From: a virus | Strand: one strand, 5' to 3' | IMG/VR virus record: IMGVR_UViG_3300008110_000030 | Location: 34,707-98,706 of that record | DNA: 64,000 nucleotides | The notes under the pieces: model-generated | What the model saw: the letters and a program-made list of their open reading frames with translations, nothing else | The model's database searches: none | What the model was told of the DNA's origin: nothing | Position numbers and translations under genes: made by a program | Shown here: positions 6,746 through 57,696 of the stretch, in pieces | Layout of the letters: the number at the start of each line of letters is the position of its first letter | Numbering within the stretch: the stretch's first letter is position 1

Positions 6746-6793
6746 GGCACCGTTAAGGGCCTAATTTGATTCTTACTTTAAAAGGAGATTATC

Positions 6794-7228
6794 ATGAATC
6801 AACTAAGAACTATAGATGCAGATACACTAACAAAAGCTCTAATTGGATTTGACACAATGTTTGACCAATTTGAACGTAGGTTTTCTAATTCAATGAGTAA
6901 TACATATCCTCCTCATAATGTTATCAAAATTGATGACAACAATTATGAGATTCAAGTGGCTGTAACTGGTTTTGGAAAAGATGATGTTACTGTTGAACTT
7001 GATCAGAACGTGTTAATTGTGACTGCTGGTAGAGATGTTGTTGAAGATGAAAAAACATATCTACACCGTGGACTTGCACAACGCAATTTTGTTCGCAACT
7101 TCCCACTTGCTGAGCATATTGAGGTTAAAGGTGCAGAACAAAAGAACGGCATCTTGTCTATTAGACTAGAGCGCATTGTTCCAGAAGCACTCAAGCCACG
7201 TCGAATTAACGTCACGTATTCAGAGTAA
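6794..7228 (+). CDS. ibpA: small heat-shock protein, IbpA/IbpB (Hsp20) family
   Basis: 144 aa; near-collinear with E. coli IbpA (YPPxNV, RTYLxxGxAxRNFxRxFxLAExIxVxGA, ERxxPEAxKPRRI). Confidence 0.9.
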   Translation: MNQLRTIDADTLTKALIGFDTMFDQFERRFSNSMSNTYPPHNVIKIDDNNYEIQVAVTGFGKDDVTVELDQNVLIVTAGRDVVEDEKTYLHRGLAQRNFVRNFPLAEHIEVKGAEQKNGILSIRLERIVPEALKPRRINVTYSE

Positions 7229-7233
7229 TTGGC

Positions 7234-7263
7234 AAAGGGGCCACTTGTGCCCCTTTGTTATTT
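7234..7263 (+). terminator. rho-independent terminator AAAGGGGC-CACTTGT-GCCCCTTT + GTTATTT
   Basis: 8-bp stem immediately after ibpA-like stop. Confidence 0.7.
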
Positions 7264-7300
7264 GTAGTATAATAAGTAAAAATAATATTTAGGAACTTAA

Positions 7301-7603
7301 ATGGGTGAAATTGCTACCAAACAAAAAAGTCTAGTAACTACAGATCTAATTGAACCTAGAAAGTTCAAAGTGATTTTCTTTAATGATGATAAAACTCCAA
7401 TGGATTTTGTTATAGATTTGTTGATTAATTTATTCAATCATGACCAAACTAGTAGCAGTAAACTAACAATGGAAATTCACAATGAAGGGTCAGCAGTAGT
7501 TGGGATTTACCCTTATGAAATCGCCGAGCAAAAAGGAATTGAATCCACACACATTGCTCGTCAAGCAGGCTACCCATTATTGATTAAAGTTGAATCGGAG
7601 TAA
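7301..7603 (+). CDS. clpS: ATP-dependent Clp protease adaptor ClpS
   Basis: 100 aa; FKVIFFNDDKTPMDFVIDLL matches ClpS core [20 protein letters not shown]; C-terminal HPLL-like YPLLIKVE. Confidence 0.85.
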   Translation: MGEIATKQKSLVTTDLIEPRKFKVIFFNDDKTPMDFVIDLLINLFNHDQTSSSKLTMEIHNEGSAVVGIYPYEIAEQKGIESTHIARQAGYPLLIKVESE

Positions 7604-7605
7604 CG

Positions 7606-8151
7606 ATGAGTTTACGAGAAATTACTAAAGATTTACATCACGAAGCAGAAATAACAAAATTTGCCAAGTTATTGCTAAGTGGAAAAATTGAAAAATCTGA
7701 TTATAAGAATTATCTATATAATCTAATGGCAGTATACGATCCAATCGAGTGGTACTGCAAACGTCAAGGTTTCCTTGACACAATGCCTACACTGCCAAGA
7801 CTACATGCTATCCATGCAGACTTTGTAGAATTAGATGATGGCACATATTGTTATCTAACGCCAGCGGCTTTAGAATATCAAGCATACTTACATAAACTAG
7901 GCAATGATCCAGAACGTAAACATTTGGTTAAGGCGCATTTATATTGCCGCCATATGGGCGACCTATTCGGTGGTCAAATCATTAAGAAACAAGTAGCACA
8001 CATTTCAAGTGGTAAATTTTACGACTTTGAAAATGCTGATGCTATGAAGATGTCTATTCGAGAAACACTCACAGATGATCTAGGAGATGAAGCTCGTGTG
8101 GCATTTGAATTTGCTATTAAGATGATGCGTGACTTATATGCAGGAGAGTAA
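7606..8151 (+). CDS. heme oxygenase (HO-1/HemO family)
   Basis: 181 aa; N-terminal LxExTKDLHHEAE...F (proximal His region) and LYxxYxxxE pattern of heme oxygenases; GGAG SD. Confidence 0.8.
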   Translation: MSLREITKDLHHEAEITKFAKLLLSGKIEKSDYKNYLYNLMAVYDPIEWYCKRQGFLDTMPTLPRLHAIHADFVELDDGTYCYLTPAALEYQAYLHKLGNDPERKHLVKAHLYCRHMGDLFGGQIIKKQVAHISSGKFYDFENADAMKMSIRETLTDDLGDEARVAFEFAIKMMRDLYAGE

Positions 8152-8827
8152 AGTATGGGACACACTAATTGAGATCCAAGCTCTACTTGAGGAGTCGTTT
8201 GAAAAAACAGGAGTCGAAGTATTCGAACCTGGAATGGATCGTTTTAATCAACCTGGTTGGGTTAATCGTGTATGGTCTAGTGATAAGTATCGCCGGGCCC
8301 ACGTTGATGTCGTTGATGCTAGGCTGACCAAAGGTCTTTGGATGATGCACTGTTGCATCTTCCCTCATACACACAATCCAGCACCAATTTACGGCTTTGA
8401 TGTTATTGCTGGTAAGAACAAAATTACTGGTTGTTTCCACGACTATAGTCCTGCTGGCGACAAAAATCATCCTATGATAGAATGGTTTGGTCAAGAAGTT
8501 AGCAAGTTAGAGTGGCGCAGAGAACGAGCACTTCCTGATTGGGCTCAGCGTATTTTTACCAAGCACATGGTGGCGGCAGGCAATGTTCAAGATGAAACTG
8601 AGTTACAACAAATTACAGATCTTGCTAAAACTACAGTAGAACACTATCTCAGTACTGTTGCAGAAACTAATAATACAGTGCCTGATACTACATTTGAGCA
8701 AGACTACTACGCACAAAATCAAAAACAAAACCCACATACTCCTAGAGTTATGGTTAGTTTAGGGCTTTCAGAGGACGATGTCAAGCATTTCATACAAGAA
8801 TGTCTATTTCCCGAAATTGGTAAATAA
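8129..8827 (+). CDS. ferredoxin-dependent bilin reductase (PcyA/PebS/PcyX family)
   Basis: 232 aa directly after heme oxygenase; LWMMHCCIFPHTHNPAPIYGFDVIAG...DYSP parallels PcyA LDILHCVMFPEPxYGLPLFGCDIVAG...DLSP; start ambiguous (8129 or 8138). Confidence 0.7.
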   Translation: MTYMQESKVWDTLIEIQALLEESFEKTGVEVFEPGMDRFNQPGWVNRVWSSDKYRRAHVDVVDARLTKGLWMMHCCIFPHTHNPAPIYGFDVIAGKNKITGCFHDYSPAGDKNHPMIEWFGQEVSKLEWRRERALPDWAQRIFTKHMVAAGNVQDETELQQITDLAKTTVEHYLSTVAETNNTVPDTTFEQDYYAQNQKQNPHTPRVMVSLGLSEDDVKHFIQECLFPEIGK

Positions 8828-8833
8828 TACATT

Positions 8834-10609
8834 ATGCGTTTAGATGAATTTCAATTAGCAGGGCAAATGCCCTCCAATATACAAAGAGCTGTTCCTGTAA
8901 CAGCTCAACCTTCTCAACCAGCAGTTGGTTCAGCTGGCGGTAACTCTTTAGAAGATAGCTTGGTAAAATTCGTTGATAAGGCTGACGATTTTCCAGATGA
9001 CTCACCTGTTCATGCTTATGTAAACAGCGTACTTAAAACAATTTTATCTTACATTCCAGATATTACGATACGTGAGAATTCAGCAACAAATCAATCATCT
9101 TTAGATGACACTAATCGTTCGTTATTGGAAGACCTCTTTCCTTATCTATCACAACTTAGTGAAGATTCTAGAAATACCCTTAAGGACTCGATTGACGGTG
9201 CAATACTTACATTAGAGCAAAAACAAAAACTTAGCGGTGAACTTTATAAGATTAAGGGTGCTAAAAAAGCCTTTACTAAACAGAATGTAACAATTCAATT
9301 AGACACCAAAGGCAACATTGCAAAGATGGATGCTGATATTGAAGCAACTGCTAGACAATTTGCCAAAGACTTTAAACTACCATTAAAATGGGCACGTAAC
9401 TTAATTGGCATGTTTGAGGTCAATATCACTAGAGAACAAAGAAAAGAATTCTTAATAGCCTGTAGAGCTGGTACTGCGCTTGATGTTGGTAAAATGATCA
9501 ATGACGGCGAAGGTCGTGTTGAAGACTATGTTTTGTTAGAACAGCCAGAACTTAAGGAAGTTTATAACAGTGTTAAAGACACGCTCCTAGACATCAGTTT
9601 AAGTACAGGTCAACGCGGAGCAACTGGTCCATTTGAAGCCATGATGGCCATCATGGGCGGATGTAAAAAACCTGGTATAAACGAGGGTGGTGATTTAAAG
9701 TATAAAGATTTAAAACTTGAAGTTAAAGCAACCTCAATTAGTGCTGTAACTGAATCTGCTACAGCAGGTAAAGCTAATTCTGCTTGGTTAGATTCTACAG
9801 CAGGTAAAGAAATATCAGGATCAACACTGAGAAGTGTGGCAAATGATTGGTTAGATAATTATGCTACAGAAGCAAGAACAAACAAAGCATTCCAAGATTC
9901 TTGGAAGAAAGCTGATTTCAGACCAGCAGGTCTTGAAAGTTTAAAACAGTGTTTAGTTGATCTTAGAAGTGTAGAAGGAGTTCCTGTTGCTCCAGCTAAG
10001 AAATTAATCAAATATATGATGGGAACTATGTTTCCAAGTATAGTGAAATTACAAAATGAAGGTTATGATTTTGACGCATCTTGTATGAGAATACTAACTG
10101 CAATTGGTAAGTTAGATACAAGCTCTATTGCTAAAGAACAAGGAGTTATGGCTTTATTAGAATATATAACTGGAAAAGGAAATGACGGTTTTGTATTCTT
10201 TAATCCATCAACTCAGAAATTCAAAATTGTTATGGGAGTAAAAGGTGTACTAGAAGAACTCAAATCAAAAAACGGTTCCAACCTACATTTTGATAGTACC
10301 ATGACCATGGGTAAGTCTGCAAAAGCCAGTCCAGGAATATATTATGGTGCAAAACCAAACTCGCCCGAAGGTATAGAATATCTAAAGAAATTTAATTCAA
10401 GTCCAGAACGTGTAGCTCAATTAAAACAAATAGAAGCAGATAAAGCAGCCGCAAGAGAAAATAAATCATTAGCCATGATTCAAGCCGCCAAAGAAGGCGA
10501 GTCAGAATTTGAATTTGATGGTAAAATGTATGCTGTTTCTAAAGCCGCTTTAAAGAAGTATTTTGAGCCTGACATGCCAATCTCCAGAACCAAAAAGAAA
10601 ACCCGTTAA
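8834..10609 (+). CDS. hypothetical protein (591 aa)
   Basis: long ORF, co-directional, no recognisable motifs. Confidence 0.55.
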   Translation: MRLDEFQLAGQMPSNIQRAVPVTAQPSQPAVGSAGGNSLEDSLVKFVDKADDFPDDSPVHAYVNSVLKTILSYIPDITIRENSATNQSSLDDTNRSLLEDLFPYLSQLSEDSRNTLKDSIDGAILTLEQKQKLSGELYKIKGAKKAFTKQNVTIQLDTKGNIAKMDADIEATARQFAKDFKLPLKWARNLIGMFEVNITREQRKEFLIACRAGTALDVGKMINDGEGRVEDYVLLEQPELKEVYNSVKDTLLDISLSTGQRGATGPFEAMMAIMGGCKKPGINEGGDLKYKDLKLEVKATSISAVTESATAGKANSAWLDSTAGKEISGSTLRSVANDWLDNYATEARTNKAFQDSWKKADFRPAGLESLKQCLVDLRSVEGVPVAPAKKLIKYMMGTMFPSIVKLQNEGYDFDASCMRILTAIGKLDTSSIAKEQGVMALLEYITGKGNDGFVFFNPSTQKFKIVMGVKGVLEELKSKNGSNLHFDSTMTMGKSAKASPGIYYGAKPNSPEGIEYLKKFNSSPERVAQLKQIEADKAAARENKSLAMIQAAKEGESEFEFDGKMYAVSKAALKKYFEPDMPISRTKKKTR

Positions 10610-10684
10610 GTATTAATTTACTAAGCATTTAATTTATCGCTCTACTACCGTTAAATAATAATGACGGTAATCGGAGAGCGAGCA

Positions 10685-11230
10685 ATGAAAAAACAAATGT
10701 ATGCCTTTATGCTATTGGCATGGGTAAGTGCTATTCATTCGGCACCATTGAATGACTTTCAATTTAAAAGTCCTGCATTCAATGGAGTTGGTTATAGTTC
10801 ACATGTACTAACCATAGAAAATCAAGAACGTACACGTCAAAACGAACGTGCAGATAAACTACAGGCTGAAATTGACAAAGCAATTTCAGATAAGAAAAAC
10901 ACGAATCTTGCTAAGTTTGTTAGTAACTTAGAATCGCGTATCTACGCACAGATTAGCCAAAACGTAGCAACTGCTATGTTTGCCAATAATAATTGTACAG
11001 CAAGTAGCAACACAAACTGTTCAGGGAATATTGATTTCCAAGGAAACTATATTAGTTGGAGCAAGGTATTAAGCTCTGATGATTCAAACTGTTCTACAGC
11101 ATATGGTTCTTGCATCATGTTGAGAATAGCAGATCCTACAGCAACGAACCCAACAACAGCACCTTGTAATTCTGATGGTGTATCTTGTATCTATGTGCCA
11201 CTAAGTTCATTCCAAATGCCAGGGAATTAA
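10685..11230 (+). CDS. csgF: curli assembly protein CsgF-like
   Basis: signal peptide; mature N-terminus FQFKSPAFNGV matches CsgF FQFRNPNFGGN; immediately precedes csgG; GGAGAG SD (ORF-track start 10661 is upstream alternative). Confidence 0.6.
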   Translation: MKKQMYAFMLLAWVSAIHSAPLNDFQFKSPAFNGVGYSSHVLTIENQERTRQNERADKLQAEIDKAISDKKNTNLAKFVSNLESRIYAQISQNVATAMFANNNCTASSNTNCSGNIDFQGNYISWSKVLSSDDSNCSTAYGSCIMLRIADPTATNPTTAPCNSDGVSCIYVPLSSFQMPGN

Positions 11231-11233
11231 CCC

Positions 11234-12484
11234 ATGAAAAAGACTATTATATCTTTGGCAATCGTAAGTATGCTTTCTGGCTGTGCAATTTTGCAGTCAA
11301 CAGGAGAGTTTGATAAAACTCCAGAACTGACTACTCAGATGAAAGGTGTTAAGAAAGAGTTTGACACCATTCCAAGTCCATCAGCTGGTAGACCATTAAG
11401 TGTTGCTGTATACAGTTTTACTGATAAAACGGGTCAACGTAGACCACAGGCTAATATTGCCAGTTTAAGTTCAGCAGTTACACAAGGCGCAGAATCTTTT
11501 CTAATTCAAGCACTACAAAATGTAGGTCAAGGACAATGGTTTGATGTTGTAGAAAGAGTAGGCATTGATAACCTGACTAAAGAACGATTAATTATTCGCC
11601 AGATGCGTGAAGCATACGAAGGTAAAGATGCTAAACCATTACTACCAATGCAGTTTGCAGGCATTATTATTGAAGGCGGCATTGTAGGCTATGACTCTAG
11701 CACAACTAGTGGTGGTGTTGGACAACGTATTTTTGGTATTGGAAAACAAACACAATGGTCCACTGATAGGGTTACCGTAAGTTTACGAGCAGTTAGCGTA
11801 AACACTGGCAAAGTATTAGCCACAGTGACTACTCAAAAGACTATAATGAGTTCAGCAGACAGTGTGTCTGCATTAAAATTCTTTGATGCTGGAACACAGG
11901 CGTTTGAAGCTGAGGCAGGTTTAACCATAAACGAGCCAGGTACATACGCTGTAAAGGCAACAATTGAAATGGCAGTAGTTGAATTAATTAAAGAAGGACA
12001 ACGCAAGGGAGTATGGGATTACAAGACAGTGGTTAAAGAATCACCACCTGTATCAATCGCACCACCCCCACAGGCAGCTCCAGTGATTAGCAGTGAAGTA
12101 AGACAGAAAGAAGAAATTAAAGTAGAGGAGAAGAAAGATGTCGTGGTTCAATCACAAACCCAATCCGAAACGAAAACAGAAGCCGCACCCAGTGCCTCCA
12201 CAGAAGTAAAAAAAGAGACACTTAAGGACGGTGCAGAACTAAAAGTAACAGCAATGCAAACTGGGGTAAAACCAACAATAGATCTTTTTGGTGCTAGGTA
12301 TTTAAAAGAAGATTCATTTGTATATAAAGAAGCAAACGAAAAAAGTCAGCGAACTTGGCTATTAAAGAAAGGCACTGAATTATACATTATTACTCCAGGA
12401 CCAGAAGGTTGGCACCAAGTAAGAGACGCAGAGAAGCGTAAAGGTTTTGTCAAGAATTCAGTACTCGGAACTGACAAACCATAA
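11234..12484 (+). CDS. csgG: curli production assembly/transport lipoprotein CsgG with C-terminal Pro/Lys/Glu-rich linker and SH3-like extension
   Basis: lipobox LSGCA; collinear with E. coli CsgG (VAVYSFTDKTGQ, IIEGGIVGYDSSTTSGGVGQRIFGIGKQTQ, LRAVSVNTGKVL); about 140 extra C-terminal aa. Confidence 0.9.
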   Translation: MKKTIISLAIVSMLSGCAILQSTGEFDKTPELTTQMKGVKKEFDTIPSPSAGRPLSVAVYSFTDKTGQRRPQANIASLSSAVTQGAESFLIQALQNVGQGQWFDVVERVGIDNLTKERLIIRQMREAYEGKDAKPLLPMQFAGIIIEGGIVGYDSSTTSGGVGQRIFGIGKQTQWSTDRVTVSLRAVSVNTGKVLATVTTQKTIMSSADSVSALKFFDAGTQAFEAEAGLTINEPGTYAVKATIEMAVVELIKEGQRKGVWDYKTVVKESPPVSIAPPPQAAPVISSEVRQKEEIKVEEKKDVVVQSQTQSETKTEAAPSASTEVKKETLKDGAELKVTAMQTGVKPTIDLFGARYLKEDSFVYKEANEKSQRTWLLKKGTELYIITPGPEGWHQVRDAEKRKGFVKNSVLGTDKP

Positions 12485-12582
12485 AGATAGCGAGTACGGA
12501 GGAACGTAGAGGTAAACTTAATTTAATGGCCGTAGGCCAAGGAGCGTGGTTGGAGAATATATAATCCAATCGTGTATAAAAG

Positions 12583-13557
12583 ATGGACAAAAGAAACAAA
12601 GGCGTTGGTAAGTTGTCGAGAAAATTACTTACAATTCTGGTGTTGTCTGGAATGGCAACATTGGGTCATGCGGCTGATAACAGCATCTACATTGATCAAG
12701 CAGGTGACAACAGCACAATTACTATGACACAAGATGGTGCTGGTAATAAAGTAAAAGGCATTTTGTCAAGCGGTGTTGCTGGAGGTACTACAGATCCTGC
12801 TAAACTTACTGGCAATGCTCAAACAGTTAACATTGAGCAAACTGGTGCAACCAACGTCTTGGCATTGGGAGTTAATTCAACGCAAGGTGGTTTAGTACAA
12901 GGATATGCTAACATAGGTGTGAATTTAAACTATCAAGTAAGTGGTGGTGGAAACACTGGTTATATTAACATTAATAACAATGGTCAAGGAACTGCAATTG
13001 GTAATGTGGTCAGTATTATACAAAGTGGTGGCGGTGGAACAGCAACACTTAACATGACTGGAACTAGTAATCAATTGACTGTTGGTCAGAGTGGTGGTGC
13101 TAACAATACATTTATAGGCACAATCAATGCTGACGAAACTGTAGCAACTGTAAGTAACACACTAGGTGGTGGTAATACTACAACATTAGACATGACTGGA
13201 AATAAAGGTCAAGTTAGTGTTACAACAACAGGCACTACAAATACAACAAGCGTGACACAAAGCGCATTTGGATCAACTGGTGCGCAAGTACTAGTTAACA
13301 TTGATGGTTCAGGCAATAATACAACTGTTACACAAAGTGGTATGTATGATCACTATGCTAGTCTAAGTGTAGTTGGCAGTGGTAATAACTTTACAATAGC
13401 ACAGTCTGGTGGTTCTGCAACTGGACATTCTGCTACATTGTCTGTAACTGGAAGTACAAACACTGTTGGTATCACACAGCAAGGATCAGTTGCCAATCTA
13501 ACCAACATGGCAGTAAATGGTAGTAATAATACATACACTATACTACAGAAAAATTAA
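12583..13557 (+). CDS. secreted curlin-repeat protein (CsgA/CsgB-like amyloid subunit)
   Basis: signal peptide; many imperfect repeats of type N-x-T-V-x-Q-x-G-x-x-N (for example NQLTVGQSGGANN, NTTVTQSGMYDH, NFTIAQSGGSATGHSATLSVTGSTNTVGITQQGSVAN). Confidence 0.7.
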   Translation: MDKRNKGVGKLSRKLLTILVLSGMATLGHAADNSIYIDQAGDNSTITMTQDGAGNKVKGILSSGVAGGTTDPAKLTGNAQTVNIEQTGATNVLALGVNSTQGGLVQGYANIGVNLNYQVSGGGNTGYININNNGQGTAIGNVVSIIQSGGGGTATLNMTGTSNQLTVGQSGGANNTFIGTINADETVATVSNTLGGGNTTTLDMTGNKGQVSVTTTGTTNTTSVTQSAFGSTGAQVLVNIDGSGNNTTVTQSGMYDHYASLSVVGSGNNFTIAQSGGSATGHSATLSVTGSTNTVGITQQGSVANLTNMAVNGSNNTYTILQKN

Positions 13558-13566
13558 GAGGTTGGA

Positions 13567-14673
13567 ATGAACGTATGGCTAGCAATATTACTTGTTTCGT
13601 TACTGCACACATCAAATGCTCAAGCGGCAATTGGTAAAGTAACGGAACAGGTAAACATACCTCCTACAATTCAACGAGATAAATCAACCCTAACTGGCAG
13701 CAAAGGTACAGGTGTTGAGATGAATGACTCAATTAAAACTTCTCAAGGCAAAGTGGGCATTACCTTTGAAGATGATACCCGTGTACAAGTAAACGAAAAC
13801 AGTAAACTGGTTATTGATGACTTTGTTTATGATCCAAAAACCAAAGCAGGTAAACTAGGTGCTAAGATTGCACTAGGTACTGTACGCTATGCTAGTGGAC
13901 AGATTGCTAAGAATAGTCCACAGAGTGTAAACCTTAATACACCTAGTGCTACTGTAGCAGTTCGTGGTACGGACTTTACAGCCACAGTAGACGAACTTGG
14001 TGAGAGTACAATTATTCTACTACCTAGTTGTCCTAACGATAGACCTACACGTACAGTAAAAGACATTGAAGCAAGTTGTAAAACTGGTGTAATTGAAGTC
14101 AGCAATGACGTGGGCACTGTAATATTAAATCAACCGTTCCAAGTAACTAAAGTACAGAGCAGAACACAACCTCCTACTCCACCTAAAACACTGGAGTTAT
14201 CTGAAATGGCTATCAGTAACTTGATAATTTTGAGTCCTCCAAAAGAAGTTAAGCAAGCTCAAGAAGAACAGCGTAAAGTGTTTAATCCTTTAGACATAGA
14301 TTTTCTAAAAGAAAAAGGATTAGAGAACTGGCTTGATATGCAAGCTGGAGTTATCTACGAAGACAAACTAAAGAAAAACTTTTTGGATAACGATTTCCTA
14401 GCCAGCTTATTTGACATTATTGGTAATCAATTGGATCAAAAATTCTTAGACCCAGTAGATCCTGTACTACCTGACTACAAGAGAGCTACTGGTATCGTTG
14501 CCTACAAAGATGATACGAGTATTGAATTGTGTAGAGATAGTGGTGCTGACATACAGTGTGTTAAAACTCCTTTAACACAGAACAGTACAATCTTCCAAAC
14601 ACAAGGTAGTTTAGAGTTTAAGAATCGTGTTAATCAAGGCGGTAATACTATCATTACCTTAATACAAAGATGA
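13567..14673 (+). CDS. secreted FecR-domain protein
   Basis: signal peptide; TPSATVAVRGTDFTATV matches FecR-domain core (x-V-x-V-RGT-x-F); sits between the two curlin-like genes. Confidence 0.5.
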   Translation: MNVWLAILLVSLLHTSNAQAAIGKVTEQVNIPPTIQRDKSTLTGSKGTGVEMNDSIKTSQGKVGITFEDDTRVQVNENSKLVIDDFVYDPKTKAGKLGAKIALGTVRYASGQIAKNSPQSVNLNTPSATVAVRGTDFTATVDELGESTIILLPSCPNDRPTRTVKDIEASCKTGVIEVSNDVGTVILNQPFQVTKVQSRTQPPTPPKTLELSEMAISNLIILSPPKEVKQAQEEQRKVFNPLDIDFLKEKGLENWLDMQAGVIYEDKLKKNFLDNDFLASLFDIIGNQLDQKFLDPVDPVLPDYKRATGIVAYKDDTSIELCRDSGADIQCVKTPLTQNSTIFQTQGSLEFKNRVNQGGNTIITLIQR

Positions 14674-15938
14674 AACGTTTTATTTTAGGATTTGTAATCT
14701 TGTGGTGTGTATGTTTGAGTGCAATTGCTCAAGCCACGTCTTTTACTGATTTAAAATTTGGTCAATATCAGATTGCAGATTCTCAATGGGACGTTGGGGC
14801 ATGTTTGTATACAAATACTTGTAATATTTACAGTACTCAACCAGGAACAATGTATCAAATACCTTGGTGGAACGGACAGTGGAACTGGCAATCTGGTCAG
14901 TATGTTAAATTTTTATTAAGTGGAATCTCTGGATATCCTTACACCGCAAATGTTTACAATAGTGACGGCAGTCTAGCAGGTAGTATAGGTAGTGGTAAAA
15001 TTATTAACATGGGTGTTGATGCAAATGGTTATGCATTATTTTTCTTTGTAGGGACAGATGATAATACTGGACAACTTTTTAGTACAAATTACGGATTTAC
15101 AGGTACGGGCGGATATTCTTGGACTGGTACATTAAATCCAACAATTTCACAAGTTGACTCATTTTCTGTAAGTTACGGATCAACGACACCATTAAGTCCT
15201 GGTCAAACATTTACTGCTACCAGTTCAACTCCATCTGGACCAACAGTCTCAGGCGGAACTATAACACAGTCTAACGCTCCAAATAATCAAATTATAGGCA
15301 GTGGAAGTGGTATTGGAATCAGCAACAATCAACAAAGTCGTGTAAACACTTGGAATAACGGTAGCAATCAAAATGCCAATAACTATTTGTATATTGATCA
15401 AGTAAGTGGTTCCTACAATGACGTAACTATTACACAAACAACTAGTACAGGTAAGAACAAAATAGAAGCGACAATAGGCGGAACTGGAAATAATGTTATT
15501 AACGCAACACAATCTGGTACTAACTATCTTAAGTTAGATGTCACTGGTAATAACAACAATGTAACAAGTCAACAGTCTAATAATAGTTTGACTAGCAATT
15601 ATAAAGAAACTACAGTTAATGGTAATAGTAATATTATTAGTACTAACCAAAAAGACAATTCTAATCACATAATGTTTACCACAGTAACTGGTAACAGTAA
15701 TAGTGTGACAGCAGTACAAGAAGGCACAGGTGGTCACTATTTAGAAAATAAACTTACTGGCAACAATAATAGTGTACTTGCTAATCAGAGCGGAAATACA
15801 AAAAATAACGCCACTATAGATTTAACTAATAATGGCGGAGCCGCCAGTGTTGATTTACAACAATCTGGCGGGAAATCTTTTAGTATTATTCAAAGTTGTA
15901 CCAATCCTGCAGGATGTAGTACTGTGGTAAGACAATAA
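14670..15938 (+). CDS. curlin-repeat protein with about 230-aa non-repeat N-terminal domain
   Basis: signal peptide; C-terminal half made of curlin-like repeats (YIDQVSGSYNDVTITQT, VINATQSGTNYLKLDVTGNNNNVTSQQS, VTAVQEGTGGHY, VLANQSGNTKNNATIDL, VDLQQSGGKS); ATGA overlap with previous gene. Confidence 0.65.
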   Translation: MKRFILGFVILWCVCLSAIAQATSFTDLKFGQYQIADSQWDVGACLYTNTCNIYSTQPGTMYQIPWWNGQWNWQSGQYVKFLLSGISGYPYTANVYNSDGSLAGSIGSGKIINMGVDANGYALFFFVGTDDNTGQLFSTNYGFTGTGGYSWTGTLNPTISQVDSFSVSYGSTTPLSPGQTFTATSSTPSGPTVSGGTITQSNAPNNQIIGSGSGIGISNNQQSRVNTWNNGSNQNANNYLYIDQVSGSYNDVTITQTTSTGKNKIEATIGGTGNNVINATQSGTNYLKLDVTGNNNNVTSQQSNNSLTSNYKETTVNGNSNIISTNQKDNSNHIMFTTVTGNSNSVTAVQEGTGGHYLENKLTGNNNSVLANQSGNTKNNATIDLTNNGGAASVDLQQSGGKSFSIIQSCTNPAGCSTVVRQ

Positions 15939-16628
15939 TTATACCTTAAATAACCATTTCTTTGTTATGTGTAATCTTGCCTTGTTGTACTGAACAGCAG
16001 TAATAACTAGAGCAACTGCCCAAGGTACAATAGTAGCGGCCCAAGGAACTAATCCTGCCCACCACGTAGCCATTAATGGTTCTTTCATCAACATTAACAT
16101 AGCCACGGCAAACAAGACAAACGATCCTACAAATACTGTGTCAGGATATTTTTCTAGTATCTTACTAACTAGGCCAGCACCAAACAAAATAATTGGCACA
16201 CTGATTAACAAGCCAGCAATTACTAAAACAAAACTTCCATTAGCGGCTGCGGCAATACCTAGTGCGTTGTCTATGCCCATAACAGCATCGGCAACTACGA
16301 TAGTACCAATAGCACCCCAAAAGGTGTCCTTGGCTTCTATGTTATGCTCGTCATGTGTAAATGCTAACTTCCAACCAATCCATAACAATGCAAGAGCACC
16401 TATTGCTCTAAGTCCAGGAATTAGTAATAGGTAAGTTAATGCGGCTACAGATATGAAGCGTATTGCGATGGCACCAAAGGTACCCCAAAAGATTGCTTTC
16501 TTGCGCAAGTGATCTGGTAGTTTATTAGCTGCCATTCCAATAACAAGAGCGTTATCGCCAGCTAATACAATGTCTATCAAAATGATAGCTAAAAATGCCC
16601 AAAGGGCCTGAAGCGTAAAGAGTTCCAT
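15939..16628 (-). CDS. TerC/YjbE-family integral membrane protein
   Basis: 229 aa on minus strand; duplicated LAGDNALVIG / GIDNALGIA motifs typical of TerC family; multiple TM helices. Confidence 0.8.
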   Translation of the reverse strand: MELFTLQALWAFLAIILIDIVLAGDNALVIGMAANKLPDHLRKKAIFWGTFGAIAIRFISVAALTYLLLIPGLRAIGALALLWIGWKLAFTHDEHNIEAKDTFWGAIGTIVVADAVMGIDNALGIAAAANGSFVLVIAGLLISVPIILFGAGLVSKILEKYPDTVFVGSFVLFAVAMLMLMKEPLMATWWAGLVPWAATIVPWAVALVITAVQYNKARLHITKKWLFKV

Positions 16629-16715: not shown

Positions 16716-17300
16716 TTGGTTAGTTACTCCCCAAAGATATTTAGTAAATACAATATGCGAGCAAAAGAATTCATTATAGAAGCAGAAGCTAGCGATGCTG
16801 AGTTAACGCAACGTTACGGCAAGTTTGAACCCGAAGATAAACCAATGTTACCAACCACAAGAGTTGGTGGTGCGCCTTCCCCAACTTTATGGACAGCCTA
16901 CGAAGTAATTCGAAATATTTTAGGCAAAGATAAAGTTACAGACGACGATGATGAATTAGCTCCTGGAATGTACTATGTGTATCAAAGCTTAGGCTCTCCT
17001 ATGTTTAAAGACACAGGTGATGGAGTAGGTAGTATCAATCTTCCCAACTTAGATAGTACTAGTGCTCGAGATGTTGCCATGGCTGCTCACGAAGCATACC
17101 ATGCTTATGTACACAATAAAAGTCTTGGCGGAGTTGCTTATGCCAATGAAAAGATTATTAACAAACTAGCAGAAAAGTGGTTGAGAAATCACTTGTCAGG
17201 ACCAGCATTACACACTGCACTAGAAAAAATAGTGGGCAGTAGAATCAGTTATGGTCCAAACCATATGCCTAACAGTTCAACAATAGATAAAAGAAAATGA
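16716..17300 (+). CDS. hypothetical protein
   Basis: ORF-track start is TTG; first ATG at 16755; no recognisable motifs. Confidence 0.45.
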   Translation: MVSYSPKIFSKYNMRAKEFIIEAEASDAELTQRYGKFEPEDKPMLPTTRVGGAPSPTLWTAYEVIRNILGKDKVTDDDDELAPGMYYVYQSLGSPMFKDTGDGVGSINLPNLDSTSARDVAMAAHEAYHAYVHNKSLGGVAYANEKIINKLAEKWLRNHLSGPALHTALEKIVGSRISYGPNHMPNSSTIDKRK

Positions 17301-17593
17301 TTAAGAAAATCTTATTAATTCTATTGGTCTGCTTACCCAGTCTAGTTAACGCCCAATTCCAATACGATTATCCATTGTTGTGCGACCGCACTGCAAAGAT
17401 CATACAAAGTCTCGGGGACGACTGGAAAGAAACGCTGACTTGGAGTGGAAAACACATCAGTGACAACAGTGTCTACAGTCTGTGGACCAATGAAAAAAAT
17501 GGATCATGGACCCTATTAAAGATGACTTCAGAAGTTTCGTGTATACTTGGAACGGGTAGCGAATCAAAAGTAAACTTAGGAATGCCTATATAA
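17297..17593 (+). CDS. small secreted protein
   Basis: signal peptide MIKKILLILLVCLPSLVNAQ; ATGA overlap upstream and TAATG overlap downstream. Confidence 0.45.
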   Translation: MIKKILLILLVCLPSLVNAQFQYDYPLLCDRTAKIIQSLGDDWKETLTWSGKHISDNSVYSLWTNEKNGSWTLLKMTSEVSCILGTGSESKVNLGMPI

Positions 17594-19635
17594 TGATTAA
17601 GAAAATTTTATTAAGCCCTTGGACTGCTCTATTAACACTGGCGTTAGTAGTGGGCATACGTGCGGCAGACCCCACATTCGTTGAAAGCGTAAGACTACGC
17701 TACTTTGATACCTTAATTACTGCTAAGGAACCAACATTCAACAATATTGTAACAGTAAATATTGATGAAGCTAGCTTGGACAAGTATGGACAATGGCCAT
17801 TGCCAAGGACTGAATATGCCAAAATTATACGAGATCTATATCAGAGGGGAGCAGGACTTGTTGTACTTAATGTGCTCATGCCAGAGTCAGACCGTACAGG
17901 TGGCGACAGTGCGTTGGGTCAAACTCTAAAAGAATTTCCAGTAGTGCTAGGGTCAGTTCCTAGCAACAAAACAAAAAATACTCCACGTGCCCCAGGGTCA
18001 GCAGTATTAGGCCCAGAGCATTTGGATCAAATTATTCGGTATCCAGGTCTAATTGCCAATGTGCCATTGCTAGAAAATTCGGCGGCAGGAGTTGGCATAG
18101 TTTCAACACTACCTGAAGTAGACGGTGTTAATCGTAGATTACCTCTTATCGTCACTGTTGATGGTAAATTATATCCAAGCATAGCTATGGAAACGCTCCG
18201 CATTGCGGCTGGCGATAGCACCTTTCAAGTAAAACTATTTGAGGGCGGTGTTGAAAAAATGCGTATACCTAAATTTGGTCCTGTTACTACAGACAATTTG
18301 GGTCGTATATGGATTGACTGGAGTCAGCAAAATAGAAACTTTAGTTTAACTACATTACCAAAAGATTTAGAAGGTGCAATTGTCATCGTAGGCCCAACAG
18401 CCGCAGGTATTAGTAATCCAGTACCAACAAGTAAAGGGGCAGTATTTCCACACGAAGTACAAGCCGCAGTTATTGGTACAATGGTAAACGGAGTTGTAAT
18501 TGAACGTCCTGATTATGCAGATGGCGCAGAGATTATAGCATTATTAGCATTTGGTTTATTATTAATTTTCTTATCGAGGTGGACTTATGTTGGCATTTGT
18601 GCTACTGTGGTTATTGTTGGTGCCGTCGTTCCTGGTACTATGTACGCTTTCACTAATTGGCTCATCCTATCAGACGCGACTGCAATCACGTTTGGGCTTA
18701 TTATCGTTGCTCTTCATACTTATGGCGTTAAGTTTGTAAGCGAGTTCTTACAGAAGCAGGCAATTAAGAAACAATTTGAGGGATATGCAAGTCCTACAGT
18801 AGTTAAACTACTACAAGAAAATCCAGACATCATCAAGAACGGAACTAAACGTGAAGTATCTATAGTGTTTTCAGACCTACGTGGATTTACTCCATTAGGT
18901 GAAAGTTTTGGTGATGACGTTAAAGGTCTAACTGAAGTTATGAACGGCTACATGGATGCTATTACACAACCTGTACTAGATGCAGATGGTATGATTATCA
19001 AGTACATTGGTGATGCAAGTATGCATATTCATAATGCACCTATTGATGATCCTGACCATGCTAAGACAGCAGTAGCTACTGGACTTAAAATGTTGAAAGC
19101 TGTTAAAAAGTTCAGCATTGAATTAGAGGCTAAAGGACGTCCAGGAGTCAAGATGGGTGCTGGTATCAATACTGGTTTAGGTTATATTGGCGAGATGGGA
19201 TCAACTCGTCGTCATTCATATGATGTACTAGGTGATGCAGTGTCAACAGCCGCACGTATTGAAAGCAAGTGTAAAGAATATGGATGCGTATTATTAGTTG
19301 GCGGTGCAACTGTGGAACAATGTGGTGATGATTTCTTCTTCTTAAAAGTAGATGACCTGGCTGTTAAGGGTAAGAGTGTGGGAGTTGCTATCTATACAGT
19401 ATTAGATGATGTTACTGCTGAGTATCATGTGAGTAAAAAGATACATGATGCTATGCATAATGCATATAGATCACAAAAATTTAACATGGCTATCAGTATG
19501 TGCAAACAACTTAGAGATCAGTTTGACAGTAGATTGACTGGTTACTATGACATGTGGATAGAACGTTGCGAGTTCCAATTAACACAAACATTGCCTGAGG
19601 ATTGGAACGGCGTGTTTATAGCAACTTCTAAATAA
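17593..19635 (+). CDS. CHASE2 sensor domain-containing class III adenylate/guanylate cyclase
   Basis: 680 aa; N-terminal periplasmic domain, TM cluster, C-terminal cyclase homology domain (VSIVFSDLRGFTPLGE, IKYIGDASM, GINTGLGYIGEMGS). Confidence 0.85.
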   Translation: MIKKILLSPWTALLTLALVVGIRAADPTFVESVRLRYFDTLITAKEPTFNNIVTVNIDEASLDKYGQWPLPRTEYAKIIRDLYQRGAGLVVLNVLMPESDRTGGDSALGQTLKEFPVVLGSVPSNKTKNTPRAPGSAVLGPEHLDQIIRYPGLIANVPLLENSAAGVGIVSTLPEVDGVNRRLPLIVTVDGKLYPSIAMETLRIAAGDSTFQVKLFEGGVEKMRIPKFGPVTTDNLGRIWIDWSQQNRNFSLTTLPKDLEGAIVIVGPTAAGISNPVPTSKGAVFPHEVQAAVIGTMVNGVVIERPDYADGAEIIALLAFGLLLIFLSRWTYVGICATVVIVGAVVPGTMYAFTNWLILSDATAITFGLIIVALHTYGVKFVSEFLQKQAIKKQFEGYASPTVVKLLQENPDIIKNGTKREVSIVFSDLRGFTPLGESFGDDVKGLTEVMNGYMDAITQPVLDADGMIIKYIGDASMHIHNAPIDDPDHAKTAVATGLKMLKAVKKFSIELEAKGRPGVKMGAGINTGLGYIGEMGSTRRHSYDVLGDAVSTAARIESKCKEYGCVLLVGGATVEQCGDDFFFLKVDDLAVKGKSVGVAIYTVLDDVTAEYHVSKKIHDAMHNAYRSQKFNMAISMCKQLRDQFDSRLTGYYDMWIERCEFQLTQTLPEDWNGVFIATSK

Positions 19636-20037
19636 TTAACCTTCGCCTGCAGCCGCAGTTTTTACATCATCAGGATCAATGTCATCTCTGCGTTTGATAG
19701 TTTTAGGTTGTTCTTTTTTACCGTCATGTGCAACTGCTTCTTGAAATTTTTCAGAAGCTTCACGCTCAACTTTAACACCTTCCATAACACGATCACTTTC
19801 AATCATCTTACCACGTAGGTGTAACACAGTATTAACTTTTTGGTTTAAACGAATCAAATCGTTGTCCAACATACGGATACGATCTATTAGAGCGATAAGA
19901 ACTGTATTGGCTTCTGAGATGACTGGTTTAACTTCTTTGGTTGACCATTCCCATACATATTTGATAATATAACCCATTCCCACTGCCATGACAATGGGAA
20001 ATCCATATTTGTTTACTAACTCTACTATTTCAGTCAT
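19636..20037 (-). CDS. small single-pass membrane protein (paralog of 20510-20818; BhlA/UviB-like topology)
   Basis: N-terminal TM (GFPIVMAVGMGYII) then coiled-coil-like region; GGAG SD; paralogy with 20510-20818. Confidence 0.5.
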   Translation of the reverse strand: MTEIVELVNKYGFPIVMAVGMGYIIKYVWEWSTKEVKPVISEANTVLIALIDRIRMLDNDLIRLNQKVNTVLHLRGKMIESDRVMEGVKVEREASEKFQEAVAHDGKKEQPKTIKRRDDIDPDDVKTAAAGEG

Positions 20038-20309: not shown

Positions 20310-20513
20310 TTATTTTTCTTGAACATTTGGTTTATATCCCCTAACAAAAGCTTCTATTGGTTCTATTTTCTGTAATATTTGTTTACCGTTAACATTGGTA
20401 AACTTAAATAGATCCCCTGCTCGCCAACCCAATTTATCAGAATTAAATTCTTCATCTAATATAATACCGTTAGGTGAACAATCCCAATTATAATCAAAGT
20501 GTAGCATTATCAA
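20310..20513 (-). CDS. hypothetical small protein
   Basis: 67 aa ORF within minus-strand island, 4-nt overlap with upstream gene. Confidence 0.35.
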   Translation of the reverse strand: MIMLHFDYNWDCSPNGIILDEEFNSDKLGWRAGDLFKFTNVNGKQILQKIEPIEAFVRGYKPNVQEK

Positions 20514-20818
20514 TCCCTTCTTGCATCATTCTTTCCGTCTGCTCGAGCAATACGATCAGCATCCGGACGTAGACCTAGCGCATTAGATACGATAGTATCA
20601 ATACGAATAACGTCGTGATTCATTGTTTTAACACGATTATCTAATGCTACGATAATACCTGCCATACCTTTGATACTGCCCAAAACTCCCTGTAACAGAA
20701 GTTTGATAGTCAAATATACAAAGTACCCGCCCGCAAACGCAACAGCTATAGGGAACCCTAAATCACCAATTAATTTAAAAATTTCGTTCATAATCGCTCC
20801 ATTTTTTACTATATCCAT
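20510..20818 (-). CDS. small single-pass membrane protein (paralog of 19636-20037)
   Basis: shares GFPIxVAxxxGY TM segment and ALDNRVKTMNHDVIRI / ALIDRIRMLDNDLIRL segment with the 133-aa gene. Confidence 0.5.
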   Translation of the reverse strand: MDIVKNGAIMNEIFKLIGDLGFPIAVAFAGGYFVYLTIKLLLQGVLGSIKGMAGIIVALDNRVKTMNHDVIRIDTIVSNALGLRPDADRIARADGKNDARRD

Positions 20819-20828: not shown

Positions 20829-20857
20829 TTGACAAATATATCGTTAGAGCATATAAT
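20829..20857 (+). promoter_or_regulatory. sigma70-type promoter TTGACA-N17-TATAAT (ATG of next gene at +7: leaderless)
   Basis: perfect -35 (20829-20834) and -10 (20852-20857) hexamers. Confidence 0.6.
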
Positions 20858-21112: not shown

Positions 21113-21187
21113 CTGGCGATAGTTCAACGGATAGAACAGTAGCCTTCTAAGCTATTAATCCAGGTTCGATTCCTGGTCGCCGGACCA
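21113..21187 (+). tRNA. tRNA-Arg (anticodon TCT), CCA encoded
   Basis: cloverleaf folded by hand: acceptor CTGGCGA/TCGCCGG (one G-U), D arm GTTC-AACGGATA-GAAC, anticodon arm GTAGC-CTTCTAA-GCTAT, T arm CCAGG-TTCGATT-CCTGG, discriminator A + CCA; 75 nt. Confidence 0.85.
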
Positions 21188-21204: not shown

Positions 21205-22038
21205 ATGAAAATCAATCTAGTCAGCGACATGCACATCAACTTCCAGGACATTAATTTGCCAGGCGGTGATGTACTCATTATGGCTGGGGATATCATGGAA
21301 GCTGGTCACCTACGTTTGGCTGACAATGCTAAACAAAATACATTTATTGCTGATAGATATCGTAGATTCATCAATGAAGAATTGTGCAAGTATCGTCATG
21401 TGATTTATATTGCAGGCAATCATGAGCACTATAGCAACAGCTATGACGACACACATATTCGAATAGGTCGTGAACTGCCAGACAACGTACACTTCTTAGA
21501 AGCAGAATCAATCAAGATTGATGACGTGTGGTTCTTTGGTGGCACATTTTGGACTGATATGAACAAAGGCGATCCTATCACTGCCAGTGTGCTTAAACAA
21601 CGCATGGCTGATTTTAGTGGTTCAATTAAATTTGGTAACAGTATCAAAGTTGATACCGCTTGGGGAGACAGTTATTACACTAGTAAGTTCACTCCTGCTT
21701 ATGCTAAAGGCGTGTTTCACGAAACAATGGAAAAATTAAAAACTTTTTTAGAAGCTCATCCTGATGAAAAAGTTGTTGTAGTAAGTCATCACGCACCAAC
21801 TGAGTTGAGTGTTAATGAATATTACAAAAATGAATTTCATATGAATGGTGGATATCACAGCAGACTAGGTGATTTTATTTTAGACCATCCCAACATTAAG
21901 GTATGGTGTCATGGTCACATGCACGATCCAGTTGACTACACTATTGGAACTACTCGTGTACTGAGTAACCCACGTGGTTACAAAGGATATGAACACCAAG
22001 CTGAAGTGTTTGATCCTAATTTTAGTTTTGACGTATAA
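21205..22038 (+). CDS. calcineurin-like metallophosphoesterase
   Basis: 277 aa; motifs DMH, GDIME, GNHE(H), HGHMH. Confidence 0.75.
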   Translation: MKINLVSDMHINFQDINLPGGDVLIMAGDIMEAGHLRLADNAKQNTFIADRYRRFINEELCKYRHVIYIAGNHEHYSNSYDDTHIRIGRELPDNVHFLEAESIKIDDVWFFGGTFWTDMNKGDPITASVLKQRMADFSGSIKFGNSIKVDTAWGDSYYTSKFTPAYAKGVFHETMEKLKTFLEAHPDEKVVVVSHHAPTELSVNEYYKNEFHMNGGYHSRLGDFILDHPNIKVWCHGHMHDPVDYTIGTTRVLSNPRGYKGYEHQAEVFDPNFSFDV

Positions 22039-24092: not shown

Positions 24093-24177
24093 GCCTGCAT
24101 GGTGAAATCGGTAAACACAGCAGACTTAAAATCTGCCGGAGAAATCCTTCCCAGTTCGATTCTGGGTGCAGGCACCA
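24093..24177 (+). tRNA. tRNA-Leu (anticodon TAA), type II with long variable arm, CCA encoded
   Basis: acceptor GCCTGCA/TGCAGGC, D GTG-AAATCGGTAAA-CAC, anticodon GCAGA-CTTAAAA-TCTGC, variable CGGAGAAATCCTT, T CCCAG-TTCGATT-CTGGG; 85 nt. Confidence 0.85.
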
Positions 24178-24239: not shown

Positions 24240-24324
24240 GCGACTGTGGTGAAATAGGTAGACACAAGAGACTTAAAATCTCTCGCCCACAGGCATCCCG
24301 GTTCGATTCCGGGCAGTCGCACCA
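24240..24324 (+). tRNA. tRNA-Leu (anticodon TAA), second divergent copy, type II, CCA encoded
   Basis: acceptor GCGACTG/CAGTCGC, D GTG-AAATAGGTAGA-CAC, anticodon AGAGA-CTTAAAA-TCTCT, variable CGCCCACAGGCAT, T CCCGG-TTCGATT-CCGGG; 85 nt. Confidence 0.85.
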
Positions 24325-37208: not shown

Positions 37209-37218
37209 AGGAAACAAA

Positions 37219-45623: not shown

Positions 45624-45704
45624 GCCATTATTTACATTAAGTTTATAAAACTATAAGGTAAATAAAGTGGACAGTTGGTATATCACCCAAATTTGGAGTT
45701 AATA

Positions 45705-54236: not shown

Positions 54237-54273
54237 GATATCCTAAAATAAATAAGATAAACAGGAACGAAAA

Positions 54274-57693: not shown

Positions 57694-57696
57694 ACT

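Follow-up and report, generated by a model that had tools for sequence, protein, structure and literature searches.

The window analysed here is a stretch of 64,000 nucleotides of viral DNA (positions 34,707 to 98,706 of the IMG/VR record IMGVR_UViG_3300008110_000030). It encodes a 680-amino acid membrane protein in which a periplasmic CHASE2 domain is connected to a nucleotidyl cyclase domain belonging to class III and of the adenylyl type. A first-pass annotation of the window had described this gene and not the module around it. It is the last gene of a conserved module with the order CsgF–CsgG–curlin–FecR–curlin–cyclase, in which the cyclase accompanies the genes of a curli (type VIII) secretion system (T8SS). 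Taken as a whole, the observations are best explained by a membrane receptor-type adenylyl cyclase that acts as the cytoplasmic output of a phage envelope module, and on balance this is probable. The catalytic domain has a coupled Asp/Ser variant of the class III active site that is apparently phage-specific.

RESULTS

Architecture of the cyclase

The features of the gene and its surroundings are itemized in Table 1. The open reading frame (ORF) begins with ATG on the + strand and agrees exactly with that first annotated. Starting at the N terminus, hydropathy gives a single transmembrane (TM) segment at residues ~5–23, and the CHASE2 domain covers residues 15–323 (Pfam PF05226, E 3.4e-39, 135.4 bits against a curated cutoff of 26.3). 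Three further TM segments follow (~311–328, ~333–353 and ~356–378), after which the chain continues into the cyclase homology domain at residues 418–595 (Guanylate_cyc PF00211, E 6.1e-18, 65.5 bits against a curated cutoff of 21.9). An AlphaFold2 model (mean predicted local distance difference test score 89.3) has the same TM helices and an alpha/beta periplasmic domain; in the membrane region its helices comprise residues 309–329, 331–356 and 362–395. Hydropathy and model together give the topology of the CHASE2 family, with one TM segment, an extracytoplasmic domain, three TM segments and a cytoplasmic output domain. The CHASE2 domain, TM bundle and C-terminal cyclase domain described in the first-pass annotation are borne out by Pfam, hydropathy and the model, and both of the family profiles that it had proposed as a check score above their curated cutoffs.

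Beyond the catalytic domain there is a C-terminal extension, in which the model has helices at residues 609–626, 630–640 and 649–663. The extension is kept in the homologue of the isolated phage Melnitz and in bacterial CHASE2 cyclases, while that of the isolated phage HTVC008M is without it. The protein family phrog_35576 matches the cyclase from end to end (E 7e-193). The BFVD structure collection contains one full-length structural twin, plus a handful of other cyclase-domain proteins. The ligands of CHASE2 domains are described as unknown (PMC5192318); the sole reported cue is a protein signal in Sinorhizobium meliloti that acts via NsrA (PMC13001267).

The active site and the coupled Asp/Ser pair

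The catalytic domain contains FSDLRGFT from residue 426, with the metal-binding Asp428, and KYIGDA from residue 470, with Lys470 and the metal-binding Asp474. The two aspartates line up with the metal Asp residues of the solved cyclases 2w01, 3r5g and 1wc0, and are kept in 146–147 of 150 representative sequences. In alignments to four solved cyclases and to the 150 representatives the specificity pair is Lys470/Asp544, which is of the adenine type, while the transition-state arginine is Arg555, invariant in the alignments both of relatives and of the 150 representatives. The first annotation had called for this comparison of specificity residues, and had left the product as cyclic AMP (cAMP), cyclic GMP (cGMP) or another cyclic nucleotide. 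Because the pair is of the adenine type, cAMP is favoured over cGMP as the predicted product.

The catalytic motifs had also been described as intact. FSDLRGFT and IGDA are indeed present, but the canonical transition-state Asn of the sequence G-x-x-V-N is replaced by Ser551, within GDAVSTAARIES, and this serine is aligned opposite Asn in all four of the best solved cyclases. Absence of a catalytic Asp, Asn or Arg had been named as speaking against a cyclase; the Asp and Arg residues are present and the Asn is missing, so that the objection formally applies, although the cyclase Ma1120 (see 'Discussion' section) is active without it.

The identity of residue 551 is coupled to that of residue 544. 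Ser or Thr at position 544 is found together with Asn at 551 in 134 of the 150 representatives, and Asp544 together with Ser551 in eight; there are no mixed states. Adjacent pocket residues covary with the pair, reading GDASMHIH in the Asp/Ser type as against GDAxMAFW. The locus statistics given here and below were taken from the 80 best viral loci, i.e. those most similar to the window, and describe this clade rather than all phages. The Asp544/Ser551 pair is present in 78 of these 80 loci and in none of 79 cellular relatives. Melnitz has the Asp/Ser pair like the window, and HTVC008M has Ser/Asn. The two most divergent Asp/Ser representatives are P0127, which is located in a phage T8SS–FecR–cyclase module, and P0187, which has a FecR gene next to it on a 3.9-kb contig and is the sole sequence of this type without an established phage context. 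From this distribution the variant is apparently phage-specific.

Class IIIb cyclases, as defined by Linder and Schultz, reportedly have Thr or Ser in place of the substrate-specifying Asp. The window protein has Asp544 where Thr or Ser would be expected. Since the nearest cellular relatives and those of the HTVC008M type have Ser or Thr at this position, the alignments indicate that the window cyclase stems from class IIIb stock yet departs from the IIIb signature.

The ratio of nonsynonymous to synonymous substitution (dN/dS) was taken against locus L007, the closest relative in which synonymous sites are unsaturated (dS ~0.7). The gene as a whole gives 0.053 and CHASE2 by itself 0.064, while the value of 0.013 in the catalytic domain points to strong purifying selection there. 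These values come from the L007 comparison only, because synonymous sites are saturated in more distant relatives (dS >1 or undefined).

The curli–FecR–cyclase module

Conservation of the neighbourhood was scored in the 55 viral loci that have at least 7 kb upstream of the cyclase, and in the 51 that have both flanks. FecR, CsgG and CsgF are all found with the cyclase in 54 of the 55 loci, and a curlin-repeat protein in 51 of them. The same gene order is annotated in both Melnitz and HTVC008M. The cyclase is the best conserved of the module proteins; relative to locus L008 its identity is 80%, compared with 50% for CsgG and 42% for FecR. In the window the FecR gene is located 2.9 kb upstream of the cyclase in the same module, while in the phage locus L168 the FecR gene overlaps the start of the cyclase by 4 bp.

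Following FecR the module continues with a second secreted repeat protein, which has no Pfam match but whose phmmer homologues occupy the equivalent place in Melnitz, in HTVC008M and in 32 viral loci. Between this gene and the cyclase come three lineage-specific genes. Of the 80 viral loci, L007 and L054 alone have the TerC-family insertion. The 194-amino acid protein that follows has no match in Pfam, NCBIfam or PHROG family scans. The 98-amino acid protein is directly upstream of the cyclase in L003–L009 and in ~8 other loci; it is without a family match, and shares the opening residues MIKKILL with the cyclase.

Table 1. Coordinates of the cyclase gene, its domains and the neighbouring features of the window
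Feature	Position	Strand	Evidence
CsgF-like type VIII secretion protein, signal peptide; opens the module on the + strand	10661..11230	+	Pfam CsgF E 7e-07
CsgG-like outer-membrane pore lipoprotein, lipobox LSGC, C-terminal SH3-like extension	11234..12484	+	Pfam CsgG E 2.7e-46; weak SH3_4
Secreted curlin-repeat protein (CsgA/B-like), signal peptide	12583..13557	+	Pfam Curlin_rpt E 9e-07
Secreted FecR-domain protein, proposed periplasmic partner of CHASE2	13567..14673	+	Pfam FecR E 3.7e-10; phrog_37870 E 2e-121
Second secreted repeat protein, Asn/Gly/Thr-rich; homologous to Melnitz's second 'curlin associated repeat protein'	14670..15938	+	phmmer
TerC/YjbE-family membrane protein, lineage-specific insertion in the module	15939..16628	-	Pfam TerC E 4e-40; TIGR03717 E 1e-56
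194-aa protein	16716..17300	+	Homologues in L003-L012 and L027
98-aa secreted protein, stop codon overlapping the cyclase start (TAATG)	17297..17593	+	ORF, signal peptide
CHASE2-sensor class III nucleotidyl (adenylyl-type) cyclase gene, 680 aa	17593..19635	+	ORF, Pfam, phrog_35576, AlphaFold2 model
Periplasmic CHASE2 domain, aa 15-323, behind N-terminal TM anchor, aa ~5-23	17635..18561	+	Pfam PF05226, hydropathy, alpha/beta fold in model
Three TM helices, aa ~311-378, running into a long cytoplasmic signalling helix (model helix 362-395)	18523..18726	+	Hydropathy, model helices
Cyclase homology domain, aa 418-595: Asp428, Asp474, Lys470, Asp544, Ser551, Arg555	18844..19377	+	
Codons Asp544 to Ser551 (YDVLGDAVS), coupled Asp/Ser active-site variant	19222..19245	+	150-representative alignment
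C-terminal three-helix extension, aa 606-680, final conserved motif LPxDWNGVFIATSK	19408..19632	+	Alignments, model helices
Small membrane protein, 133 aa, paralogue 1 of phrog_18771	19636..20037	-	phrog_18771 E 3e-29
Further ORF recorded alongside the phrog_18771 paralogues	20310..20513	-	
Small membrane protein, 102 aa, paralogue 2 of phrog_18771	20510..20818	-	phrog_18771 E 1e-29
Perfect sigma-70 consensus promoter (TTGACA-17-TATAAT), 12/12 match, in the divergent gap next to the small-paralogue operon	20829..20857	+	

Phage context and distribution among viruses

The window is phage DNA, encoding RIIA, a phage ATPase and a phage endonuclease, with hallmark genes flanking the cyclase on both sides. 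The phage is a large T4-like phage. Homologues of the cyclase over its full length are encoded by Melnitz, a Methylophilales phage (QZI94833.1, 51% identity), and HTVC008M, a Pelagibacter phage (AGE60353.1, 35% identity), and in both the gene is annotated in GenBank. The phage genes of the window, the match to phrog_35576 and these two homologues uphold the earlier assignment of the gene to a phage.

A cyclase protein identical to that of the window is encoded on a metagenomic contig of 214,617 bp. Close relatives of the cyclase are found on contigs of 214–265 kb, and two more on contigs of 320 and 350 kb. Because these close relatives lie on contigs of 214–350 kb, compared with genomes of 141–147 kb for Melnitz and HTVC008M, the window phage may belong to a jumbo-sized branch of the T4-like group.

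At least 574 IMG/VR viral contigs encode a relative of the cyclase according to a pattern scan, and in the 80 best viral loci CHASE2 is full-length without exception. Such cyclases are rare across viruses in general and common within this lineage. The view that signalling genes of this kind are rare in phages, taken in the first-pass annotation, agrees with the handful of cyclase-domain proteins in BFVD, but does not hold inside the lineage.

Cellular ancestry and exchange of domains

The cyclase family is very large in cellular life, with 5,802 clusters (50% identity) at E≤1e-30 and as many as 69,375 when the limit is E≤0.001. The cellular sequences closest to the window cyclase come mostly from Alphaproteobacteria (Bradyrhizobium, Methylobacterium, Rhodospirillales and others), with at most 35% identity. 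Eighty bacterial loci were scanned with hidden Markov models (HMMs) built from the phage proteins. An ORF with a FecR domain lies within 8 kb of the cyclase in 26 of them; in 10 it is within 500 bp, and in eight it is directly upstream on the same strand. CsgG, CsgF, curlin-repeat proteins and the small paralogues described below were found in none of the 80. The FecR–CHASE2 pairing is inherited from alphaproteobacterial cAMP pathways. From the bacterial FecR–cyclase pairs without T8SS genes, together with the published FecR–CHASE2 clusters (see 'Discussion' section), the phage module has the appearance of a FecR–CHASE2–cyclase sensing unit of cellular origin that was joined to a type VIII secretion unit.

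In a rough neighbour-joining tree the Asp/Ser sequences form a single clade, inside which two Thr/Asn viral loci, L034 and L067, are nested. These two are domain swaps (cyclase ORFs at ~10001–12050). Compared with the window their CHASE2 domains are 74–82% identical while their catalytic domains, of the Thr/Asn type, are 47–49% identical, the values for L034 being 82 and 47%. Melnitz has the reverse pattern, with 39% identity in CHASE2 and 76% in the catalytic domain. Since the identities of the two domains diverge in these three sequences, the sensor and output domains appear to have separate histories, as expected of a modular receptor.

Small membrane paralogues and downstream genes

The cyclase and the first of two small membrane proteins are convergent, with abutting stop codons. 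Both small proteins are paralogues belonging to phrog_18771. Paralogue 1 is present in 50 and paralogue 2 in 49 of the 51 viral loci with both flanks, lying either downstream of the cyclase in convergent orientation or, as in Melnitz and HTVC008M, immediately ahead of CsgF. Their core, YGFPIV...LIALIDRIRMLDNDLIRL, is strongly conserved. In the module described by Wittmers et al. 2022 (PMC9599517), CsgF is preceded by one or two small genes labelled 'histidine kinase'. The positional equivalents of these genes are the phrog_18771 paralogues, which in the window are found after the cyclase on the other strand. Assignment as histidine kinases was rejected; scans with Pfam, NCBIfam and PADLOC gave no kinase domain in these proteins, whose length is just 100–133 amino acids. 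Weak holin- and YvrJ-like matches are limited to the TM segment at the N terminus.

Overall the region shows no enrichment of sigma-70-like sites, and the one noteworthy site is the perfect consensus promoter in the divergent gap between the small paralogues and the genes downstream. The late-promoter motif TATAAATA occurs once in the 64 kb, where 6.3 sites would arise by chance, and was set aside as uninformative.

A calcineurin-like metallophosphoesterase of 277 amino acids (21205–22038, +) is encoded 1.5 kb downstream of the cyclase, and many viral loci have a homologue in the neighbourhood of the module. It was rejected as an established cAMP phosphodiesterase, the best NCBIfam match being to CpdA with 24 bits against a cutoff of 225, and a search of the PDB gave no sequence match. 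Residues 1–115 match the PADLOC candidate PDC-S10 (E 1.5e-20). A role as a CpdA-type partner would be at most a weak lead from these matches.

In L168, the phage carrying P0127, the second gene after the cyclase (12348–12749, +) is an ORF of 133 amino acids with a weak match to Tad3 (PF25185).

Other genes of the window

A chaperone and protease block encodes DnaK, Hsp20 and ClpS, with ClpP further on, and after it there are overlapping genes for a heme oxygenase and a ferredoxin-dependent bilin reductase (4856–8827 and 37192–37839, +). Many viral loci keep the run Hsp20–ClpS–heme oxygenase–bilin reductase in synteny upstream of their T8SS module. Other auxiliary genes, all on the + strand, encode a SufC-like ABC ATPase with a SufD-like protein of Fe–S assembly (42004–43531), a Band 7/SPFH protein (31631–32440), 6-pyruvoyl-tetrahydropterin synthase (39385–39924) and RIIA (28515–30686). 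Three huge consecutive ORFs of 2853, 1139 and 1413 amino acids occupy 45675–61938 (+) and are nearly free of Pfam matches, the sole ones being a putative Ig domain and a weak E1_FCCH match in the third. The tRNA genes comprise tRNA-Arg(tct) at 21113–21187 (+) and tandem tRNA-Leu(taa) at 24093–24177 and 24240–24324 (+); one tRNA-Leu of the window is 89% identical to a tRNA-Leu of EBPR podovirus 3.

DISCUSSION

A proposed receptor cyclase in an envelope module

In the mechanism proposed the phage would put the module, comprising the pair of small membrane proteins, an outer-membrane pore of CsgF and CsgG, secreted proteins with curlin repeats (one or two), secreted FecR and the cyclase, into a host without curli genes. 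A periplasmic or cell-surface cue would be felt by CHASE2, probably together with FecR and possibly through the outer-membrane pore or the fibre, by analogy with S. meliloti, whose CHASE2 cyclases receive a signal by way of the NsrA barrel. The signal would then run from the periplasmic CHASE2 domain through the three TM helices and the signalling helix to the cytoplasmic catalytic domain, working as a homodimer, and the cue would alter the conversion of ATP to cAMP in the infected cell. The parts of this reading differ in strength. To judge by its residues and their conservation, the enzyme is quite likely to be an active adenylyl cyclase. That it is controlled by a periplasmic or surface cue via CHASE2 with FecR, and perhaps by the CsgG/F pore or the secreted repeat proteins, is suggested by the analogy with bacterial systems, and the chances here are about even.

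Several observations weigh against the receptor cyclase. One is the replacement of the canonical Asn by Ser551; the title of Yan et al. 1997, as cited in PMC4215837, gives this Asn as essential in the mammalian cyclase. The FecR gene and the cyclase are separated in the window by four genes, one of them on the opposite strand, and promoter and terminator scans of the region gave no clear operon structure. FecR identity does not track CHASE2 identity (43% for FecR against 82% for CHASE2 in L034); since the two do not covary, a tightly co-evolving and highly specific FecR–CHASE2 interface is weakened, and co-evolution of the pair is unsupported by the identity comparisons. Lastly, Pfam scans of ~45 ORFs of the window revealed no cyclic nucleotide-binding or CRP-like protein, and a six-frame phmmer search with a single E. 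coli CRP sequence gave nothing, the scans covering 64 kb of a contig of at least 214 kb.

Alternative explanations

An active adenylyl cyclase might have CHASE2 mainly as an anchor and respond to no cue. Its cAMP could then reprogramme the CRP-dependent metabolism of the host or, by analogy with cAMP–CRP–CsgD in E. coli, turn on the phage curli genes. This is unlikely, though several points are in keeping with it. Wittmers et al. suggest a regulatory role for the cyclase in the T8SS (PMC9599517), and the lack of tight covariation between FecR and CHASE2 fits an anchor. In addition, deletion of CHASE2 from S. meliloti CyaD1 leads to constitutive cAMP (PMC5498481), so that the catalytic part is able to work alone. 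On the other hand the CHASE2 domain is itself constrained (dN/dS 0.064) and is full-length in all 80 of the best viral loci, and its pairing with FecR has been kept from bacteria to phages. In L034 and L067 the sensor and the catalytic domain have recombined independently of each other, as would be the case for a modular sensor–output protein. Moreover CsgD, which the curli version of the anchor would use, is absent from these phages (PMC9599517).

The catalytic domain might alternatively be a strongly attenuated or inactive pseudo-cyclase, with the protein serving the T8SS module as a receptor, scaffold or ATP-binding sensor. The loss of the canonical Asn is what suggests it, but the rest of the evidence makes it doubtful. 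The metal-binding Asp pair, Lys, Asp, Arg and the lysines of VKGK are invariant. The dN/dS of the catalytic domain (0.013) is the lowest in the protein, and this domain is 76–80% identical across phages in which the sensors are only ~39% identical. Ma1120 of Mycobacterium avium, a class III adenylyl cyclase with the Lys/Asp pair, has Ala at the position of the Asn and is fully active, and its change to Asn drastically lowers activity (PMC4215837). Because the substitution is conserved and linked to Asp544, because purifying selection on it is strong, and because Ma1120 is active without the Asn, the serine is no argument for a dead enzyme. From these comparisons we infer that Ser551 is part of a compensated active-site variant of a working enzyme rather than the result of random decay.

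A third alternative is that the product is another cyclic nucleotide (cGMP, cCMP or cUMP), which would mimic, pre-empt or jam host immune signalling such as that of the Pycsar type. PADLOC models of PycC match the catalytic domain (best E 3e-15, 54 bits), and among the sequences compared the Asp544/Ser551 pocket is confined to those in a phage context, bar P0187. The clades of PycC use varied non-canonical residues for base selection (PMC11224242), so that sequence rules for the choice of base are weak. Nevertheless this reading is improbable, given that the window protein has the canonical Lys/Asp pair, that it resembles PycC less closely in structure and that no effector adjoins the cyclase. 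Membership of Pycsar or another defence system was rejected, as the PADLOC match is one of generic similarity to PycC with no adjacent effector; neighbouring ORFs scanned with Pfam, NCBIfam and PADLOC contain no cyclic nucleotide-binding domain fused to TM segments or TIR.

Lastly, host contamination or a chimeric assembly might have brought in a bacterial gene. In favour of this are the closest sequences outside viruses, which belong to Alphaproteobacteria, and a domain family made up overwhelmingly of cellular members (69,375 clusters at E≤0.001). It can be dismissed: it is refuted by two isolated and fully sequenced phages with the cyclase in the same context, and it is at odds with the ≥574 IMG/VR contigs, the phage hallmark genes on both sides and the ≤35% identity of the cellular relatives.

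The receptor cyclase can be taken further, into a speculative form that we regard as unlikely to hold in full. In this form the Asp544/Ser551 pocket would be a phage-specific rework of a class IIIb cyclase that alters its product or its gating, and at the same time the module would be a virus-installed envelope sensor, running from the CsgG/F pore and curlin fibres via FecR to CHASE2, that reports an event at the surface or in the periplasm (superinfection, fibre assembly or cell contact) to the infection programme by a cyclic nucleotide. If true, it would provide the first defined CHASE2 input outside rhizobia, and a role for the puzzling phage curli genes.

Relation to published work

An adenylate cyclase in the phage curli module is already annotated in GenBank and was published in 2022 (PMC9599517), and the basic finding will therefore not surprise specialists. 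The module described in podo- and myo-pelagiphages by Wittmers et al. has the order histidine kinase–CsgF–CsgG–CsgA/B–FecR–(second CsgA/B)–adenylate cyclase. They presented a tree of the cyclase and proposed an alphaproteobacterial origin, observed expression of T8SS components and FecR in metatranscriptomes, and proposed a regulatory role for the cyclase in T8SS function (PMC9599517). The word CHASE is absent from that paper; FecR is taken as an iron regulator, and the CHASE2 sensor, the topology and the catalytic residues are not mentioned. Neither Zaragoza-Solas et al. 2020 nor Buchholz et al. 2022, both of which deal with the CsgG/F pore of phages, makes any mention of the cyclase or FecR. 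Among the papers open to the literature search none connects CHASE2 with a phage protein, the lone apparent match being a false positive, and a search on cAMP signalling in SAR11 hosts gave nothing useful.

What is added here is the CHASE2 receptor architecture, the coupled Asp/Ser variant, the swapping of domains, the constant linkage of two small paralogues, and the bacterial FecR–CHASE2 ancestry, which moves the reading of FecR away from iron. The CHASE2 receptor and its pairing with FecR make the module look like a sensory device with a second-messenger output, beyond amyloid secretion. This view follows from the inheritance of the pairing from bacterial cAMP pathways that sense extracellular signals via outer-membrane proteins. 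The phage curli/T8SS module is globally abundant, and for cyclase enzymologists the Asp/Ser variant poses a compact question of structure and function.

Comparison with known systems

The published modules are those of phages infecting Pelagibacter or, for Melnitz, OM43. The cyclases of Melnitz, HTVC008M and Wittmers et al. share full-length homology, the position as last gene and the pair of small paralogues with the window. The window differs in the additional TerC, 194- and 98-amino acid genes inserted before the cyclase, and in the small paralogues, which are convergent after the cyclase in the window and before CsgF in the isolates. HTVC008M differs further in its Ser/Asn active site and in having no C-terminal extension.

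The class IIIb cyclases CyaB of Pseudomonas aeruginosa (3r5g), CyaC of Spirulina platensis (1wc0) and Cya2 of Synechocystis (2w01) have Thr or Ser together with the canonical Asn, in contrast to Asp544 and Ser551 of the window. Ma1120 (4wp3) has Ala rather than Ser at the Asn position and is a soluble, single-domain protein; it is not closely related, and is absent from the sequence matches to solved structures. PycC of Pycsar has the class III fold in common with the window cyclase, with weak HMM matches. It has no CHASE2 sensor and a lower structural similarity, and the window protein has the canonical residues of the adenine type.

FecR-domain proteins are linked to CHASE2 proteins in several bacteria. 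In Burkholderia FecR/LysM proteins precede CHASE2 histidine kinases in operons (PMC5192318). In Campylobacterota CHASE2 adenylate cyclases share a gene cluster with a FecR-domain protein, a TPR protein and a phosphodiesterase of cAMP (PMC9239204), so that a CHASE2 cyclase is linked to a FecR-domain envelope protein as it is in the window. There are no T8SS genes in the Campylobacterota cluster and no TPR protein was identified in the window; while the cluster has a phosphodiesterase, the metallophosphoesterase of the window matches CpdA far below threshold (24 against 225 bits).

The cyclases CyaD1, CyaD2 and CyaK of S. meliloti have the same receptor architecture of CHASE2 and class III cyclase, and are of alphaproteobacterial lineage. 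They raise cAMP in response to an extracellular protein signal via the outer-membrane barrel NsrA (PMC13001267), and SMc02177, a protein with a FecR domain, is among the targets of Clr, the cAMP regulator (PMC13001267, PMC5498481). The S. meliloti system is cellular and its cAMP is read by Clr, which belongs to the CRP family, whereas the CsgG/F pore and the curlin-repeat proteins belong to the phage module and have no part in the rhizobial pathway.

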